A stretch of DNA of 64,000 bases from Gemmatimonadota bacterium (GCA_003222135.1 QHUM01000043.1:18379-82378), one strand, 5' to 3'. Counted from the stretch's first letter, positions 1,587 to 7,707 are shown. Notes: generated from the letters alone by a model not told the origin. Made by a program: numbers and translations.

Positions 1587-2666
1587 TCAGCCGACGAGGA
1601 TTGGCTGCTCGGTCAGCGGTTGCTTGTACACGTAGCGCTGTCCCGCATAGTTGCGCAGTACGACTTCCTCATCCGTGACAGACTCGACGTACTCCGGGAG
1701 CAGCGGGATCTTGCCGCCGCCGCCCGGCGCGTCGATGACGAAGTGCGGCACGGCGAGCCCTGACGTCCAGCCCCGCAGCGCCTTGATGATCTCGAGCCCC
1801 TTCTCCACCGTGGTGCGGAAATGCTCCGCGCCCGCGACTTGGTCGCACATATAGATGTAGTACGGGCGCACCCGCGCGGCCAGGAGCTTCTGCATCAGGA
1901 GCTTCATCACCGCCACGTCGTCGTTCACGCCTCTCAAGAGCACCGTCTGGCATCCGAGCGGGACACCCGCATCGGCGAGCATACCGAGCGCGCGGACCGC
2001 GGCCGACGTGAGCTCGTCGGGGTGGTTGAAGTGCGTGTTGATGTAGAGCGGGTGGTACTGCTTGAGGATGGCGCACAGCTCGGGCGTGATCCGTTCCGGC
2101 AGGTGGCACGGGATCCGGCTCCCGATCCGGACGATCTCGAGGTGGGGAATCGATCGCAGGCGCCGGCAGAGCTCGTCGATGCGACGATCCGAGAGGAGCA
2201 ACGGATCGCCGCCGGACATGATGACGTCGCGGATCTCGGTGTGCTCCTCGAGGTAGCGGAACGCGGACTCGAGCTGGGACAGCGGGATCTTCTCGGGATC
2301 GCCCACCTTGCGGCGCCGGGTGCAGAAGCGGCAATACGAGGCGCACACCGGCGAGACCAGGAACAACGCCCGGTCGGGATAGCGATGCGTGATGTTGGGG
2401 ACGGGGGAGTGCGCGTCCTCCGCGAGCGAATCCTCCATGCCGTCGTGTACTTCCAGCTCCTGGAGGTCCGGGACATACTGCCGCCAGATCGCGTCGCCGG
2501 GAGACTTGATGAGATCGACCATCGCGGGCGAGATGCGGAACTCGAAATTCTCCGCTGCCTGGCGCAGGCGTGCGAGGTCCGGGAAGTGCTCGGGCCCGAA
2601 CCTGGCGACGAGGGCTTCCAGGGAGGCAAGGCTCTGGTTACGCAGTCGTTCTTGCCAGGACGCCAT
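1587..2666 (-). CDS. kamA: KamA-family radical SAM enzyme, likely L-lysine 2,3-aminomutase
   Basis: CASYCRFCTRRR (CxxxCxxC plus substrate Arg), YYIYMCD, and VIDAPGGGGKIP (PLP Lys). Both Asp residues that bind the lysine epsilon-amine in clostridial KamA are present. Confidence 0.85.
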   Translation of the reverse strand: MASWQERLRNQSLASLEALVARFGPEHFPDLARLRQAAENFEFRISPAMVDLIKSPGDAIWRQYVPDLQELEVHDGMEDSLAEDAHSPVPNITHRYPDRALFLVSPVCASYCRFCTRRRKVGDPEKIPLSQLESAFRYLEEHTEIRDVIMSGGDPLLLSDRRIDELCRRLRSIPHLEIVRIGSRIPCHLPERITPELCAILKQYHPLYINTHFNHPDELTSAAVRALGMLADAGVPLGCQTVLLRGVNDDVAVMKLLMQKLLAARVRPYYIYMCDQVAGAEHFRTTVEKGLEIIKALRGWTSGLAVPHFVIDAPGGGGKIPLLPEYVESVTDEEVVLRNYAGQRYVYKQPLTEQPILVG

Positions 2667-3138
2667 GCACCAAGTCCTTGAGGTAGATCACCAGGTCGTC
2701 GGCCGGAGCGTAATAGCCCGGGAGCCGCGCCGCCTGAGCGTACCCGCGCCGCTCGTAGAAGGTGCGGGTCGGCGCGTAGTCGGCGCGCGACGACGTCTCG
2801 ACGACGAGGAGCCGACAGCCGTCAGCCGTCAGCGCCTTCTCGACCGCGTCGAGCAGCTGCGTGCCGATGCCCTTCCCTTGCCACGTCGGCTCGACGACGA
2901 TCCAGTACAGGTCGTAGGTGCCCTGCGTTCCCGGGGTGGGCCCCCAGCAGGCGTACCCCACCAGGTCGTCGTCTGCGTACGCGCCGAGGAATCGGTAGTC
3001 GTCGTCCCCCGCGAGGCTCTCGTCGAGCAGCTCAACCGCGAGCGCGACCTCCTCCGGGCGGAAGAGACCCGTCGCTCGGGTGAGCCGTTCAAGCGGTGCG
3101 CGTTGCGCGCGCCCGACGGGGCGGAGCGAGCAGCTCAC
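2638..3138 (-). CDS. GNAT N-acetyltransferase
   Basis: YDLYWIVV, QGKGIG (acetyl-CoA motif A), ETSS, and FYERRGY. Probable GTG start at 3138. Confidence 0.85.
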   Translation of the reverse strand: MSCSLRPVGRAQRAPLERLTRATGLFRPEEVALAVELLDESLAGDDDYRFLGAYADDDLVGYACWGPTPGTQGTYDLYWIVVEPTWQGKGIGTQLLDAVEKALTADGCRLLVVETSSRADYAPTRTFYERRGYAQAARLPGYYAPADDLVIYLKDLVHGVLARTTA

Positions 3139-4108
3139 GGGCCGCGGTGGCGCCCTGCGCATCGCGCAGCGCCACCTCCGCGATGCGCCGCACCAGCTCC
3201 GCGTAGTCCCAACCTGCCGCCTTCGCCATGCGGGACAGTCCGGCGTCGTCGTTCAGGTCGGGGTTCGGATTCACCTCGAGGACCCAAGGACGTCCCTGGT
3301 CGTCCAGTCGGAGGTCCACGCGCCCGTAGCCCTTCCCCTGCATGACCCGCCACGCGGCCTCCGCCACCTTCCCCAGCCGCTCCGCGAGCTTCTGCGGAAC
3401 CGCGGCGGGGCACACGGGCACGCTGCCCAGGTCGTCGGGCGATCCGGCTTCCCACTTGCCGGCGTAGGTGAGGATCGGCCAGGCGCCTTCCGGCATGCGG
3501 GCGAAGTCGATCTCGGCGATGGGGAGGGTGCGGGTGCCGACGAACCCGACGTTGAACTCGCGGCCCGCGACGTACTCCTGCACCAGCACTTCGTCGAACT
3601 GCTCCGTCATCGCGGCGACACGGGCGCGCAGCGTCTTGCGGTCGGCGACGACCGAGCCGCGGTCGAGCCCGGCGCTCGCGTCCTCGGCGGCCGGCTTGAC
3701 GATGGCGGGCAACGGGAAATCGTCGTCGATCTTTCCCTGCGCGATGGTCCAGCGCGGGATCGGCAGACCGGCCTGCGCGAGCAGCGCATTGGCGACCGCC
3801 TTGCGACGGCAGGCGGCGATCGTCCAGAGGCTCGCGCCGGTGACCGGGACCCCGGCGAACTCGAGCGCCCCGACGACGTGCTCTTCCCACTCGCTCTTGC
3901 CGTGCACCCCTTCGCACAGGTTGAAGACGAGGTCGGCCCGCCGCGCCACCGCGAACCATCGCAGATCGTGCCGCACCGGAACCTTACGGACCTCGTGCCC
4001 CAGCGCGGCGAAGATGGCCGCGATCTCGTCCACCGCCTTCATCACGCCACGGATGTCTTGCGGGGTCCAATCGGCGGCTCCCGGGTCGTAGAGGATGACG
4101 ATCCTCAC
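3089..4108 (-). CDS. D-Ala-D-Ala ligase-like ATP-grasp protein (copy B)
   Basis: VFNLCEG, IVKPAAEDASAG, QEYVAGREF, GRVDLR, LEVNPNP. GTG start at 4108 overlaps the upstream TGA (GTGA). The ORF-track start at 4702 is an overshoot. Confidence 0.85.
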   Translation of the reverse strand: MRIVILYDPGAADWTPQDIRGVMKAVDEIAAIFAALGHEVRKVPVRHDLRWFAVARRADLVFNLCEGVHGKSEWEEHVVGALEFAGVPVTGASLWTIAACRRKAVANALLAQAGLPIPRWTIAQGKIDDDFPLPAIVKPAAEDASAGLDRGSVVADRKTLRARVAAMTEQFDEVLVQEYVAGREFNVGFVGTRTLPIAEIDFARMPEGAWPILTYAGKWEAGSPDDLGSVPVCPAAVPQKLAERLGKVAEAAWRVMQGKGYGRVDLRLDDQGRPWVLEVNPNPDLNDDAGLSRMAKAAGWDYAELVRRIAEVALRDAQGATAARELLAPPRRARATRTA

Positions 4109-5193
4109 GCGGTGGTCCCGGCGGCTTGCAGCGACCTGCCTTGCCGCGCCCCCGCGGTCTCCGCCGCGATGTCTTCCCCCGTCAGGCGCCGCCACGCAAT
4201 GCGCACGACCTCCTGGATCAGCTCGTCGTAGCCGAAGCCGGCGGCGCGTGCGGCCTTGGGAAAGCACGAGTTCATCGCGGGATCGGGGATGATCCCGGGG
4301 AGGGGGTTGAGCTCGAGGATGTTCGGCACGCCGAAGCGATCGACGCGGATGTCGACGCGACACCAGTCGCGGCAGTCGAGGGCGTGGTAGGCGTCGAGGG
4401 CGGTGCGCTCGATCTCCGCATACAGGCCCGCCGGCACGAGCGCCGGGCATTGAAAGATCGCGAGCGGCGCTTCGGGCCGGTCCCACACCCACTTGGCCTC
4501 GTAGCCGTACACGGGCGGCGCGCCCGGGGGCAACGCCGAGAAATCGAACCCGATGACCGGCAGACAGTACGCCGCCGCACCGTTGCCGAGGATCGCCACC
4601 GTGAACTCGGGGCCCGGGAGGTAGGTCTCGACCAGCACCGGCTCCGCGTAGCGTTCGAGCAGGAACAGCGCCCGCTCGCGCAGCCGCACGGGCGTGTCGC
4701 ATAAGTTGTTGCTGAATACGCCCTTACCAGACCCCTCAGCGACCGGCTTTACGAACACGGGGAACGGCAGCCGCAGCCGCTCCAAGTCCCGGGGCGTCTC
4801 GACGCACACGAACGGCGCCGTGGGTACGCCGCGGTAGGCGAGAATCTCTTTGGTGCGCGCCTTCTGGAGTGCCAGTCCGAGTGTCAGTGGATCCGAGCCC
4901 GTGTACGGAACGTTCAAGTACTCGCAGATCGCGGGCACCAGCGCCTCGCGACTCTGGCCCCGCAGCCCCTCGGCGATGTTGAACACGAGATCCGGACGGG
5001 CGAGTGCGACCTGCTGCGGGAAGGATTGATCGGCTTCGAGTCGGACGACGCTGCCGAAGAGACCGAGAGCCTGCTCCACCGCAGCGATGGTGGACGGGTC
5101 GTCCCACTCGGCGAACGCGTCGTTGGTACTCGAGGGCTGTGCGGCGGAGTTCGCGGCGTCCGGTTTCTGGTTGTATGCGAGACCGATGCGCAT
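4105..5193 (-). CDS. D-Ala-D-Ala ligase-like ATP-grasp protein (copy A)
   Basis: VFNIAEG, FVKPVAEGSGKG, ETYLPGPEF, RVDIR, LELNPLPG. AGGAGG upstream at 5208-5213. Confidence 0.88.
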   Translation of the reverse strand: MRIGLAYNQKPDAANSAAQPSSTNDAFAEWDDPSTIAAVEQALGLFGSVVRLEADQSFPQQVALARPDLVFNIAEGLRGQSREALVPAICEYLNVPYTGSDPLTLGLALQKARTKEILAYRGVPTAPFVCVETPRDLERLRLPFPVFVKPVAEGSGKGVFSNNLCDTPVRLRERALFLLERYAEPVLVETYLPGPEFTVAILGNGAAAYCLPVIGFDFSALPPGAPPVYGYEAKWVWDRPEAPLAIFQCPALVPAGLYAEIERTALDAYHALDCRDWCRVDIRVDRFGVPNILELNPLPGIIPDPAMNSCFPKAARAAGFGYDELIQEVVRIAWRRLTGEDIAAETAGARQGRSLQAAGTTA

Positions 5194-5215
5194 GTGGTCT
5201 CGGGTGACCTCCTAC

Positions 5216-5238
5216 AAAAAAGGCCGCTGGTGCGGTCC
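5216..5238 (-). terminator. Terminator-like hairpin plus U6, immediately upstream of the ATP-grasp operon RBS
   Basis: Minus strand reads GGACCGC-ACCA-GCGGCC-TTTTTT, followed 2 nt later by AGGAGG. Confidence 0.6.
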
Positions 5239-5265
5239 GGGAATTGAAAACGCGCTGTCGGTTAG

Positions 5266-5294
5266 ACAATACGACGCGTCGGCGCGATGCGCAA
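5266..5294 (-). promoter_or_regulatory. Sigma70-like promoter for the ATP-grasp/GNAT/kamA operon
   Basis: Minus strand TTGCGC-17 nt-TATTGT. Confidence 0.5.
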
Positions 5295-5328: not shown

Positions 5329-6081
5329 TCAAACTTTGTGATACGCGACGCGCGCCGCTTCTTGTGTGTCGTCCGCGACGTAGATCGCGAAATCGGAGAA
5401 CAGCGCGGGGGCTTCGCGCTGCAACACGCGCAGACACGCGATCGCCATTCGGCGGATCTCGAGCTCCGCGCCCTCGCCGCACCGCAGCTCGAGCATCGTG
5501 CGCCAGGCGCGCGCGTTTCCCGAGACGACGATCTTCACCTCGGTCGCGTTCGGCAGCACGCTGCGCGCCGCCTCACGCGCCATCTTCCGTCGGTGCACCT
5601 TGTCGGTGACCCAGCCGTAGCGCTCCATGAGACCTTCGACCGCGCGCACGTACGCCGCCTGCGCGTCGGCGACCACGCGCTGCCATTCGGCCTCGAGCTG
5701 CTCGTCCCCGATGACCGCGGGCGGCATGACGAACGCCGCGTGCGATTCGTCCACGTAGCGCTGCGACAGCTGTGAGTAGCCGAAGCCCGCCCGGTGGCGC
5801 ACCAGCTCGTGCGAGCAGGAGCGCGAAATCCCCTCGATCAATAGCACGTAGACGGCGTGCTCCAGCACCGAGCCGTGTCCCTGCTTCTTGATGTTCTCGA
5901 GATACTCCGCCGTGCTGCGGTTGGCCGGGTTGTGCTGGCTCATGTAGCAGATCCGACCGGCGAATTCCGCGAGCCGCTCGCCCGGGGAGGAGTCGCCGCG
6001 CCACTGCACGCGCAGGTGGTCGGGCTCGAGGAACTCGGGACGGGCAATCAGCGTGACGTGGGGAGCGCGGAAGATTTCCAT
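5329..6081 (-). CDS. thyX: FAD-dependent thymidylate synthase ThyX
   Basis: GHGSVLEH, ELVRHRAGFGYSQLSQRY (ThyX motif), EAARSVLPNATE, AELEIR. Confidence 0.95.
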   Translation of the reverse strand: MEIFRAPHVTLIARPEFLEPDHLRVQWRGDSSPGERLAEFAGRICYMSQHNPANRSTAEYLENIKKQGHGSVLEHAVYVLLIEGISRSCSHELVRHRAGFGYSQLSQRYVDESHAAFVMPPAVIGDEQLEAEWQRVVADAQAAYVRAVEGLMERYGWVTDKVHRRKMAREAARSVLPNATEVKIVVSGNARAWRTMLELRCGEGAELEIRRMAIACLRVLQREAPALFSDFAIYVADDTQEAARVAYHKV

Positions 6082-6084
6082 GGG

Positions 6085-7707
6085 CTAGGGGCTAGGGCTC
6101 GGGGATCGCGCCACCTGTAGCTTCGGCGTGGCCCAGCCGGCGGTGCGTTCGAGTTCGCGCAAGCGCGCGGCGATGTCGTCGGGAATCGGGGCCGCGTCCG
6201 GACCGACCTTCAAATCGGCAAGCGGCGCCCAGTCGGGCGAGGGGATTATAACACCGGGGTTGAGGATCGCCCGGGGGTCGTACGCCCGCTTCACGTCCCG
6301 AAACAGCGCCATCATGTCGCGGCCGTAGAACCGCTCCAGCAGGCCGGCGCGCAGGCGGCCGTCGCCATGTTCCCCGGACGGCGTGCCCCCCAGCCCGACG
6401 AGCAGCTCCGTCACCGTCGCGAACAGCCCGGCCAGCGCCTCGCGCCATCCCGGCACCGTCGTGTCGGGGAGGGCGTTCACGTGCACATGACCGTCGCCCG
6501 CGTGGCCGAACAGCGCCACCTGCACGCCACAGCGTTCCGCCGCTACGCGGACGCCGGCGATGTACTTCCCCAGGTGCTCGAGCGGCACGCAGCCGTCCTC
6601 CACGACCTGCAGGGAGCGCCGGGACGGAGGGAGCCGGGCGAGCGCGGGACTGGCGAGCTTCCGCACGGACCAAAGCTGCTCGAGCCCTCCCCGATCCACC
6701 GCCGTCGCGACGTGCACCGTCGCGGCCTTGAGACCGCGCACCGCGTCGCCCACTACGCCGCGCGCGGCAGCCGCGGTGTCCCGCTCGAACTCCACCAGCA
6801 GCAGCCCCTCGATGCCGGCAGGGAGCTCGAGTCCGTCGCGGCGTGCCAGGTCGAGGAACGTGCGGTCGAGCAGCTCGACGGCCGACGGGTTGAGCGCGAT
6901 GAGGAACGGCACGGCCTGGCCGAGTGCTTCGAGGCTGCCGAAGCCGAGTGCCGCACCGGCGACGTCAGGGGGGATCGGCTCGAGCCGCCACCGCACGGCG
7001 GTGACGAGAGCGAGCGTCCCCTCGGAGCCGATCAAGAGATCGAGCTCGTCGCCCGACTCGGCATAGCGGTCCAGCGCGTAGCCGCTGGAATTCTTGCGGG
7101 TCTTGGGGAAGCGGGCCTGGACGAGCCTCCGCTGGTCGGGTGACAAGACGAACCGCTCCCCTCTCCCATCTCCCCGGGTTACCCTCCGCGCCGTCCCGTC
7201 CGCCTCGACGATCTCGACCGCGTCCACCCACGCGCGTACGCTGCCGCAGCGCACCGAGCGCGGCCCCGCGGCGTTGGTCGCCGTCAGGCCGCCCGAGGTC
7301 GCGAACGCGCCCGACGACGGATCGGGGGCGAGCCGCAGGCCGATCGGGCGGGCGGCGTCGCCGATCTGCGCCGCCGTGACCGACGCGCCCACCCACGCCG
7401 CGCGGTGCGCCCAGTCGGGGGCGATCCAGTGGAATCCGGGACTCAGGTCCACCAGCACGCCGCGCCCCACCGCTCCGCCCGGCATGCCGCTCCCCGACCC
7501 GCGCGGCACCAGCGGTGTGCCGGTGTCCACCGCCCAGCGCACCAGCCGCTGCAGCTCCTCCACGCCGTGCGGCAGGGCGACCCCGGCGGGGACGATCCGG
7601 TGGATCCCTGCCCCCTCGGAGTACGCGGCGCGGATGCGCTCGTCGGTGGTCAGGCCGGGGAAAGGAGAAAGGGGAAGCGCCACGTGAGGCACGGTGAAAA
7701 TTACCAC
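6085..7707 (-). CDS. FAD-binding oxidoreductase (GlcD/D-lactate dehydrogenase family)
   Basis: PRGSGSGMPGG, PDPSS, GSEGTLA, GHAGDGHVH, GEHGDG, LNPG. Start uncertain (GTG at 7707, 7692 or 7683). Confidence 0.85.
   Translation of the reverse strand: MVIFTVPHVALPLSPFPGLTTDERIRAAYSEGAGIHRIVPAGVALPHGVEELQRLVRWAVDTGTPLVPRGSGSGMPGGAVGRGVLVDLSPGFHWIAPDWAHRAAWVGASVTAAQIGDAARPIGLRLAPDPSSGAFATSGGLTATNAAGPRSVRCGSVRAWVDAVEIVEADGTARRVTRGDGRGERFVLSPDQRRLVQARFPKTRKNSSGYALDRYAESGDELDLLIGSEGTLALVTAVRWRLEPIPPDVAGAALGFGSLEALGQAVPFLIALNPSAVELLDRTFLDLARRDGLELPAGIEGLLLVEFERDTAAAARGVVGDAVRGLKAATVHVATAVDRGGLEQLWSVRKLASPALARLPPSRRSLQVVEDGCVPLEHLGKYIAGVRVAAERCGVQVALFGHAGDGHVHVNALPDTTVPGWREALAGLFATVTELLVGLGGTPSGEHGDGRLRAGLLERFYGRDMMALFRDVKRAYDPRAILNPGVIIPSPDWAPLADLKVGPDAAPIPDDIAARLRELERTAGWATPKLQVARSPSPSP

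Follow-up and report, generated by a model that had tools for sequence, protein, structure and literature searches.

The window analysed here is a 64,000-nucleotide (nt) stretch of the Gemmatimonadota bacterium assembly GCA_003222135.1 (QHUM01000043.1:18379-82378), a Gemmatimonadales genome with about 69% G+C that was assembled from a soil metagenome. At positions 1587-5193 the window carries four overlapping genes, with the coordinates and content that a first-pass annotation had given them: two ATP-grasp ligases (AG1 and AG2), a small N-acetyltransferase (GNAT) and a lysine 2,3-aminomutase-type enzyme (KamA). All four lie head-to-tail on the minus strand in the order AG1-AG2-GNAT-KamA (Table 1). 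AG1 and AG2 overlap by 4 nt (GTGA, the GTG start of AG2 lying on the AG1 stop), AG2 and GNAT by 74 nt, and GNAT and KamA by 29 nt; the overlap of GNAT with the end of AG2 is preserved in relatives. A longer AG2 open reading frame (ORF) of 537 amino acids (aa), starting at 4702, was rejected as a high-G+C artefact of the ORF listing. The four genes most likely form one self-contained, predicted biosynthetic operon behind a single conserved promoter-like leader.

KamA matched the Pfam families Radical_SAM and LAM_C and aligned over its full length to the Clostridium subterminale lysine 2,3-aminomutase (2A5H; E = 2e-111). The alignment showed that KamA retains the CxxxCxxC motif, Arg134, Asp293 (in YMCD), Asp330 (in VIDAP) and the pyridoxal phosphate (PLP) lysine, Lys337, including every lysine-specific residue that had been picked out at first pass. 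In lysine 2,3-aminomutase, Asp293 and Asp330 are the pair that holds the epsilon-ammonium group of lysine. KamA is a short form, which lacks the C-terminal zinc-binding domain and carries Asp in place of Cys268. It passed the cut-off of the subfamily model TIGR00238 (285 bits against 199), but fell below those of all the more specific models: AblA (TIGR03820, its best NCBIfam match; 438 bits against 525), glutamate 2,3-aminomutase (TIGR04368; 387 against 650), EpmB (228 against 369) and the arginine 2,3-aminomutase equivalog. A role as glutamate 2,3-aminomutase was rejected, since both Asp293 and Asp330 are kept and the score is below the cut-off. As the subfamily cut-off was passed, the equivalog cut-offs were failed and the lysine residues were kept, KamA appears to be a lysine-type aminomutase that forms a subfamily of its own.

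AG1 and AG2 are paralogues with 33% identity, and both matched the Pfam family Dala_Dala_lig_C (PF07478; E = 4e-29 and 5e-25, respectively). Their matches among solved structures were Ddl and Van ligases only, at 24-28% identity. In an AlphaFold2 model of AG1 (pLDDT, the predicted local distance difference test score, 84), the top 50 PDB matches found by Foldseek were all Ddl, with TM scores of 0.7-0.8. The two ligases share with Ddl and VanA this three-domain ATP-grasp fold and the catalytic residues, and probably also the acyl-phosphate mechanism and the dimeric architecture. In contrast, both scored under the cut-offs of the NCBIfam Ddl models NF002378/TIGR01205 (243/246 bits), with 158/124 bits for AG1 and 136/118 bits for AG2, and their genes lie outside any cell-wall cluster. 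AG2 also gave faint TTL and RimK matches.

Residues were compared by alignment with E. coli DdlB and with the Ddl of the same genome. Of the Ddl residues that serve the nucleotide, magnesium and the transition state, AG1 and AG2 retain K97, K144, E187, K215, R255, D257, E270 and N272. Residue E180 is kept in AG1 and is Gln in AG2, in that copy alone; apart from this position, the alignment agreed with the first-pass view of an ATP-grasp core combined with Ddl-unlike substrate residues, including K-W in place of K-Y. In Ddl, D-Ala is bound by GGxSxE (E15), H63, Y216 (F/H in Van ligases) and S281-L282, all of which are replaced in the cassette ligases. H63 has become an invariant Glu, Y216 is Trp (YEAKW of AG1 and YAGKW of AG2 align at K215-Y216), and S281/L282 are changed. 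The GGxSxE motif has given way in AG1 to a family-wide AE(F/W/Y)D..TI.AI with invariant acidic residues (AE(W/F)D at the motif position), while AG2 carries a conserved N-terminal motif of its own. A canonical Ddl is encoded elsewhere in the genome, with GGATAER (GGxxxER), the K-Y loop and all D-Ala-binding residues retained, so that a housekeeping Ddl role for AG1 and AG2, already doubted at first pass, was rejected. Since the catalytic residues are kept, the substrate residues are replaced and a true Ddl exists elsewhere, AG1 and AG2 are predicted to be active Ddl-fold ligases that act on other substrates.

Four acidic residues that are invariant in the family lie in the N-terminal domain of AG1, where they could bind two ammonium groups. 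In Ddl, the corresponding domain binds the first substrate, the acyl donor; invariant acids at this place would match an acid with two positive charges, such as beta-lysine, if an ambiguous N-terminal alignment is read correctly. A third Ddl-like paralogue of the AG2-type clade, AG3 (about 335 aa), is present in the same genome with no linked KamA; it lies directly after a gene that, judged by sequence only, resembles those of MFS transporters, and before one for a zinc-ribbon protein.

GNAT matched Pfam Acetyltransf_1 (E = 2e-16). Its nearest NCBIfam model was RimI, on which it scored 49 bits against a cut-off of 86. It reached 17 bits against 205 on the AblB model (TIGR03827, about 270 aa), and lacks the extra N-terminal domain of AblB. 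The nearest solved structure, 2R7H (E = 4e-37), is a structural-genomics entry named "putative D-alanine N-acetyltransferase". We found no functional paper on 2R7H, and the papers that cite it are silent on function; we suspect that the depositors derived the name from Ddl-like neighbours.

The first-pass annotation had staked its proposal on the co-conservation of the four genes, and our neighbourhood search bore this out, with the order kept in at least two phylum-level groups. Among 80 Gemmatimonadales loci, the order FAD oxidase-ThyX-AG1-AG2-GNAT-KamA was kept wherever the contig reached, and all four cassette genes were present in 70. Among 80 loci from Kryptonia, Ignavibacteria and Bacteroidota, AG1-AG2-GNAT-KamA was found in all 61 that had room for four genes, and in 13 shorter complete loci; a further locus, L122, also retained the order. 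The flanks are unrelated: ThyX and the FAD oxidase in Gemmatimonadales, against three gene clusters in Kryptonia, Ignavibacteria and Bacteroidota, where the flanking genes are apparently RecG, GpsA and PlsY, read from N-termini only. As the order is constant while the flanks differ between lineages, the conserved unit is therefore exactly these four genes, and no additional conserved neighbour was found across the two sets of loci beyond lineage synteny.

The AG1 family comprises 1022 clusters at 50% identity (E < 1e-30). An AG1 orthologue was found in 75 of 151 Gemmatimonadota genomes (39 of 83 genera) and was absent from 14 high-quality genomes of the host's own family. The cassette, missing from half of the sampled Gemmatimonadota genomes, is therefore accessory and dispensable. 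The phylogenetic tree placed AG1 of the window in a clade with Kryptonia AG1 and the KamA-fused domains (support 97/95), and AG2 of the window in an AG2-type clade with the second ligase genes of Kryptonia and archaeal cassettes (support 99/99).

Natural fusions and reduced forms suggest which members are central. Archaeal proteins that join KamA to an AG1-type domain occur in Thermoplasmatota, Methanocellales, uncultured Methanosarcinales, Woesearchaeota and Nanoarchaeota, and bacterial ones in some Spirochaetales and Deltaproteobacteria. In protein P0134, an AG1-like and an AG2-type domain are naturally fused, which would tie the two ligase types together. One lineage of unclassified bacteria has AG1 and KamA only, amid histidine, leucine and pyrophosphatase genes, while some loci contain two or three tandem ATP-grasp genes per cassette. 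GNAT is present in the Methanocellales cassette, is fused to AG2 in one Thermoplasmatota locus and is absent from several variants, as would be predicted for the tailoring step that the first-pass annotation had made of it. On the evidence of the KamA-AG1 fusions and the lineage with AG1 and KamA only, the core would consist of these two genes, with AG2 as the usual second step and GNAT as optional tailoring. Thus, the four-gene unit as first described stood as a conserved quartet, but its core appears to be narrower. AG1 probably uses beta-lysine directly, and the fusions are the strongest evidence for such direct use.

Our results favor, with moderate confidence, the reading that the operon makes a small beta-lysine-containing amide or peptide. 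KamA, as its active-site residues indicate, would convert L-lysine to beta-lysine. AG1 would then turn a carboxylate into an acyl phosphate at the expense of ATP and join it to an amine; beta-lysine would be one of its substrates, most likely the acyl donor. AG2 would form a second amide bond, by which it would either add one residue or load the other beta-lysine amine. The RimI-like GNAT would acetylate a leftover free amine, thereby removing charge or blocking aminopeptidases. The predicted product is an N-acetylated di- or tri-component beta-lysyl peptide. The sequence of events proposed at first pass, in which beta-lysine is made and then ligated, is supported by the lysine-type residues of KamA, the KamA-AG1 fusions and the fusion of AG1-like and AG2-type domains.

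The spacer between thyX and AG1 contains the operon leader. Its layout is TATTGCGCATCGC (TTGCGC), 17 nt, TATTGT (TATTCT in some loci), a GACCGC..GCGGCC hairpin, a U6 (T6) run, AGGAGG and GAGACCAC-ATG. It is near-invariant among the aligned Gemmatimonadales loci (30 aligned rows inspected); the loop length of the hairpin differs in L004 and L019, with the stem retained, and many relatives have a TCGACAACGCGTTTCGA palindrome downstream of the -10 element. An Rfam search of the leader gave no family down to E = 1, and its fold energy was no better than that of shuffled sequences (z = -1.4). A riboswitch was rejected on these two grounds. A scan of the leader for consensus promoters and terminators returned nothing at the scan thresholds. 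Possible roles of the hairpin are those of an attenuator, of an operator or of a 5' element that stabilises the mRNA. The operon sequence was found in soil DNA metagenomes only, and no RNA runs contain it.

Upstream of the cassette, and set off from it by the leader, lie ThyX and a GlcD-like FAD-linked oxidase; a response regulator lies downstream. The adjacency of ThyX and the oxidase is probably lineage synteny only, as neither is beside the cassette in other phyla. No EpmA or lysine-fermentation genes were found among the neighbours, in agreement with the first-pass annotation.

Table 1. Coordinates of the cassette, its leader and related features in the window, the same genome and variant loci.
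Feature	Sequence	Coordinates	Strand	Description
AG1	window	4105..5193	-	362 aa; ATG start preceded by AGGAGG; Ddl-fold ATP-grasp ligase, proposed to activate beta-lysine
AG2	window	3089..4108	-	339 aa; GTG start; second Ddl-fold ATP-grasp ligase, proposed second amide-bond step
GNAT	window	2638..3162	-	174 aa; small N-acetyltransferase, proposed N-acetyl capping step
KamA	window	1587..2666	-	359 aa; short radical SAM/PLP aminomutase with lysine-type substrate residues, predicted to make beta-lysine
Operon leader (thyX-AG1 spacer)	window	5194..5294	-	promoter-like element, hairpin, AGGAGG, AG1 ATG
ThyX and GlcD-like FAD-linked oxidase	window	5329-7707	-	upstream neighbours
Canonical Ddl	own genome, C4	23099-24118		
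AG3	own genome, C4	139695-140702		
EF-P	own genome, C16	20147-20695		
MurL-like gene	L105	9369-10691		
MurL-like gene	L112	2116-3477		
MurL-like gene	L115	10031-12824		
MurL-like gene	L119	9044-10399		
MurL-like gene	L117	14963-16384		
MurL-like gene	L114	11119-12087		
AG-AG fusion + Peptidase_S58	L085	8001-11182		genes overlapping
AG-AG fusion + Peptidase_S58	L088	8001-11168		gap 10-15 nt
AG-AG fusion + Peptidase_S58	L089	8001-11086		gap 10-15 nt
AG-KamA fusion	L110	2341-5196		reverse domain order
Extended archaeal cluster	L117	7971-17643		two KamA genes

Accessory genes in variant loci bear on the fate of the product. A gene of 440-470 aa without a Pfam family occurs in seven archaeal loci, of which L105 and L111 belong to one genome; in five of the seven it lies directly 3' of the ligase genes. 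The encoded proteins share an SFGKDS motif and a W-C-x2-C (CxxC) cluster, and their only Pfam match was a sub-threshold one to QueC. Six of the seven matched the MurL model NF041275, the best with E = 2e-11; the match is far below the cut-off, at about 33 bits against 700 bits. A profile search with the MurL-like protein against PDB sequences gave nothing meaningful. MurL adenylates and epimerises the C-terminal Glu of a peptide (PMC5808125), and in the D-Glu route it follows MurD2 as its distant homologue follows the ligases in these archaeal variants. By analogy, the homologue suggests an ATP-dependent activation, and possibly an epimerisation, of the C-terminal residue of the product, and a ligated product that ends in an alpha-amino acid with an activated carboxylate. 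In contrast to the MurD2/MurL route, the match is remote, the gene is absent from the window's own genome and the archaeal hosts have no murein.

Peptidase genes accompany other variants. In L110, an AG-KamA fusion has its domains in the reverse order, and a Peptidase_S51 gene (cyanophycinase/PepE family) comes 3 nt after it. A protein with a faint AMP-binding match precedes this fusion. A single-protein search with P0197 returned four loci. In Myxococcota-type genomes, a gene for Peptidase_S58 (DmpA/BapA beta-aminopeptidase family) comes closely after the fused pair of AG1-like domains in three of four loci. One of these pairs, in L088, adjoins a weak Mur_ligase_M match and a CapC match, which we read as poly-gamma-glutamate synthesis genes. 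The archaeal locus L117 combines KamA, two Ddl-like ligases, a FemAB-like protein, another ATP-grasp protein, a PLP decarboxylase of the Orn/DAP/Arg type, the MurL-like protein and a second KamA. The Woesearchaeota cassette adjoins genes for MscL, an Na+/H+ exchanger, an Na+/Ca2+ exchanger and CorA. Taken together, the genes of the variant loci suggest that the products are small peptides or amides whose end-capping and turnover differ between lineages, and the neighbours hint weakly at an ion or osmotic setting.

Several points weigh against a beta-lysyl amide or peptide as the product. Every chemical step of the scheme is inferred, from gene structure, conservation, fusions, residue patterns and fold, and the assignment of beta-lysine as the acyl donor leans on site 1 of Ddl, where the N-terminal alignment is ambiguous. 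In this genome, the cassette has no linked exporter, regulator or hydrolase. According to the tree, the S58-linked AG-AG fusions represent a sister subfamily and not the AG1/AG2 pair, so that their peptidase partner bears on the cassette only indirectly; one such Myxococcota genome that was searched has a short KamA elsewhere, with no recognisable partner genes adjoining. As for an osmolyte function, the idea rests on one archaeal neighbourhood and on analogy, and a di-cationic beta-lysyl peptide would be a poor compatible solute unless it is capped or has acidic partners.

The product might instead be a polymer or oligomer, that is, a cyanophycin-like, nitrogen-rich polyamide with beta-lysine, built by two ligase activities, with GNAT to cap it and dedicated peptidases to degrade it. 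The tandem ATP-grasp genes, the S51 peptidase beside the AG-KamA fusion and the S58 peptidases beside the AG-AG fusions, one of them near the weak Mur_ligase_M and CapC matches, are in its favor. However, neither this genome nor the 160 close loci have a peptidase linked to the cassette, the Ddl fold is known for single condensations, and the variant with AG1 and KamA only has one ligase. In addition, Pfam detected neither a primer-binding nor a Mur-like domain as in CphA, and the cassette departs from a cyanophycin-type synthetase both in this respect and in having no linked S51 peptidase here. We therefore regard a polymer as unlikely.

Modification of a protein or of the ribosome, in the manner of RimK, TTL or EpmA, would place beta-lysine on a protein carboxylate or lysine before acetylation. 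RimI as the nearest model of GNAT, the faint TTL and RimK matches of AG2 and the occurrence of the cassette in small DPANN genomes are consistent with such a role. The best-known target of beta-lysylation, EF-P, was rejected: the sole EF-P found in the genome has the loop HRTPGNLRA, which lacks a lysine where the E. coli protein has K34, KamA is below the EpmB cut-off, and no EpmA exceeded its cut-off (the best match to the EpmA model, a frame of 556 aa that probably encodes LysRS, reached 254 bits against 287). Moreover, 14 high-quality genomes from the host's family do without the cassette, no gene for a candidate target is conserved along with it, and the nearest relatives in fold and sequence are small-molecule Ddl enzymes only. 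Protein modification thus seems quite improbable to us.

Slightly less credit still is due to a plain AblA/AblB system, in which the ligases would have some unrelated task or would only recycle or condense the osmolyte. The cassette resembles AblA/AblB in that a lysine 2,3-aminomutase lies next to a GNAT gene, beta-lysine is the building block, acetylation of an amine comes last and stress protection is the likely setting; AblA is the best NCBIfam match of KamA, and beta-lysine derivatives are established osmolytes (PMC3543383, PMC9337991). Unlike AblA/AblB, it adds two ATP-grasp ligases, which are tied to KamA more tightly than GNAT is. Its GNAT is small and RimI-like, scores far below the AblB cut-off and has no AblB N-terminal domain, while its KamA is the short form, without the C-terminal domain and below the AblA cut-off. 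Since both cut-offs were failed, plain membership in AblA/AblB was rejected. Furthermore, the fusion partner of KamA is AG1 and not GNAT, the dispensable member.

Beta-lysine also occurs in antibiotics of the streptothricin and tuberactinomycin types. A bioactive secondary metabolite, namely an antibiotic-like beta-lysyl compound with GNAT as self-resistance, would agree with this, with the frequent role of GNATs in self-resistance and with the differences in accessory genes between lineages. It is nevertheless very improbable, as there is no exporter, nonribosomal peptide synthetase (NRPS), polyketide synthase or regulator nearby, many variants have no GNAT, and both gene order and sequence are strongly conserved throughout entire orders, with an inheritance that looks vertical, which is not typical of specialised-metabolite clusters.

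The lowest probability falls to cell-wall remodelling (an alternative dipeptide for the peptidoglycan stem, or beta-lysine on that stem with GNAT modifying it, a target that the first-pass annotation had entertained). This reading would draw on the Ddl fold, on the decoration of stem peptides by ATP-grasp D-aspartate ligases and on the MurL-like gene of variant loci. It is very unlikely, since members of the family can do without the cassette, half of the phylum lacks it, and it is common among archaea that have no wall or no murein. In addition, no mur, fts or pbp gene is linked, and a canonical Ddl is encoded elsewhere in the genome.

The beta-lysyl amide or peptide that we prefer has parallels in known ATP-grasp systems. 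In the N-acetylglutaminylglutamine amide (NAGGN) pathway, Ngg and AsnO produce an N-acetyl-capped small peptide osmolyte by means of an ATP-grasp peptide ligase and a GNAT. The cassette likewise pairs ATP-grasp ligation with a GNAT, and in the archaeal variants the MurL-like enzyme, with its PP-loop-like motif and a probable action on the C-terminal carboxylate, takes the place of AsnO. No sequence orthology between the two systems was seen, and no search was aimed at it; the cassette would use beta-lysine and not glutamine, and it has two separate Ddl-type ligases, whereas NAGGN synthesis uses one RimK/cyanophycin-type domain fused to the GNAT. HsvABC of phevamine synthesis and the L-amino-acid ligases BacD, TabS and RizA also build small amides or peptides stepwise with stand-alone ATP-grasp ligases, without a ribosome or an NRPS. 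In contrast to the cassette, which spans bacteria and archaea, they belong to other ATP-grasp subfamilies, have no radical SAM partner that forms a beta-amino acid and are found in narrow natural-product clusters. A role of the product as a stress solute can be offered only tentatively.

To our knowledge, only a few roles of beta-lysine are known, namely in lysine fermentation, as an archaeal osmolyte, in EF-P modification and in a few antibiotics. The first-pass annotation had known of no characterised product, and we likewise found no description of the cassette in the literature. Its enzymes come from known families, while the pathway and product match no known one. Through the cassette, the making of beta-lysine would be linked to ATP-grasp ligation across entire orders of bacteria from soil and sediment and, as single fused proteins, in several archaeal phyla. 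It is possible, although we would not yet put this above a speculation, that KamA and Ddl-derived ligases form a widespread natural beta-peptide route that uses neither the ribosome nor an NRPS. From soil Gemmatimonadota to DPANN archaea, such a route would supply beta-lysyl dipeptides, tripeptides or oligopeptides, tailored by N-acetylation or by MurL-like C-terminal activation or epimerisation, and turned over by S58 beta-aminopeptidases and S51 peptidases. If this is true, orphan beta-aminopeptidases of the DmpA/BapA family gain a natural substrate class.

Identification of the product would give a function to more than 1000 protein clusters that are now mislabelled as "D-alanine-D-alanine ligase", would explain 2R7H and would possibly show the targets of natural beta-aminopeptidases. 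The cassette enzymes could also be simple biocatalysts for amides of beta-amino acids. For the abundant uncultured lineages that carry the cassette, such an identification would mean a further class of metabolites and, probably, a strategy of protection against stress.

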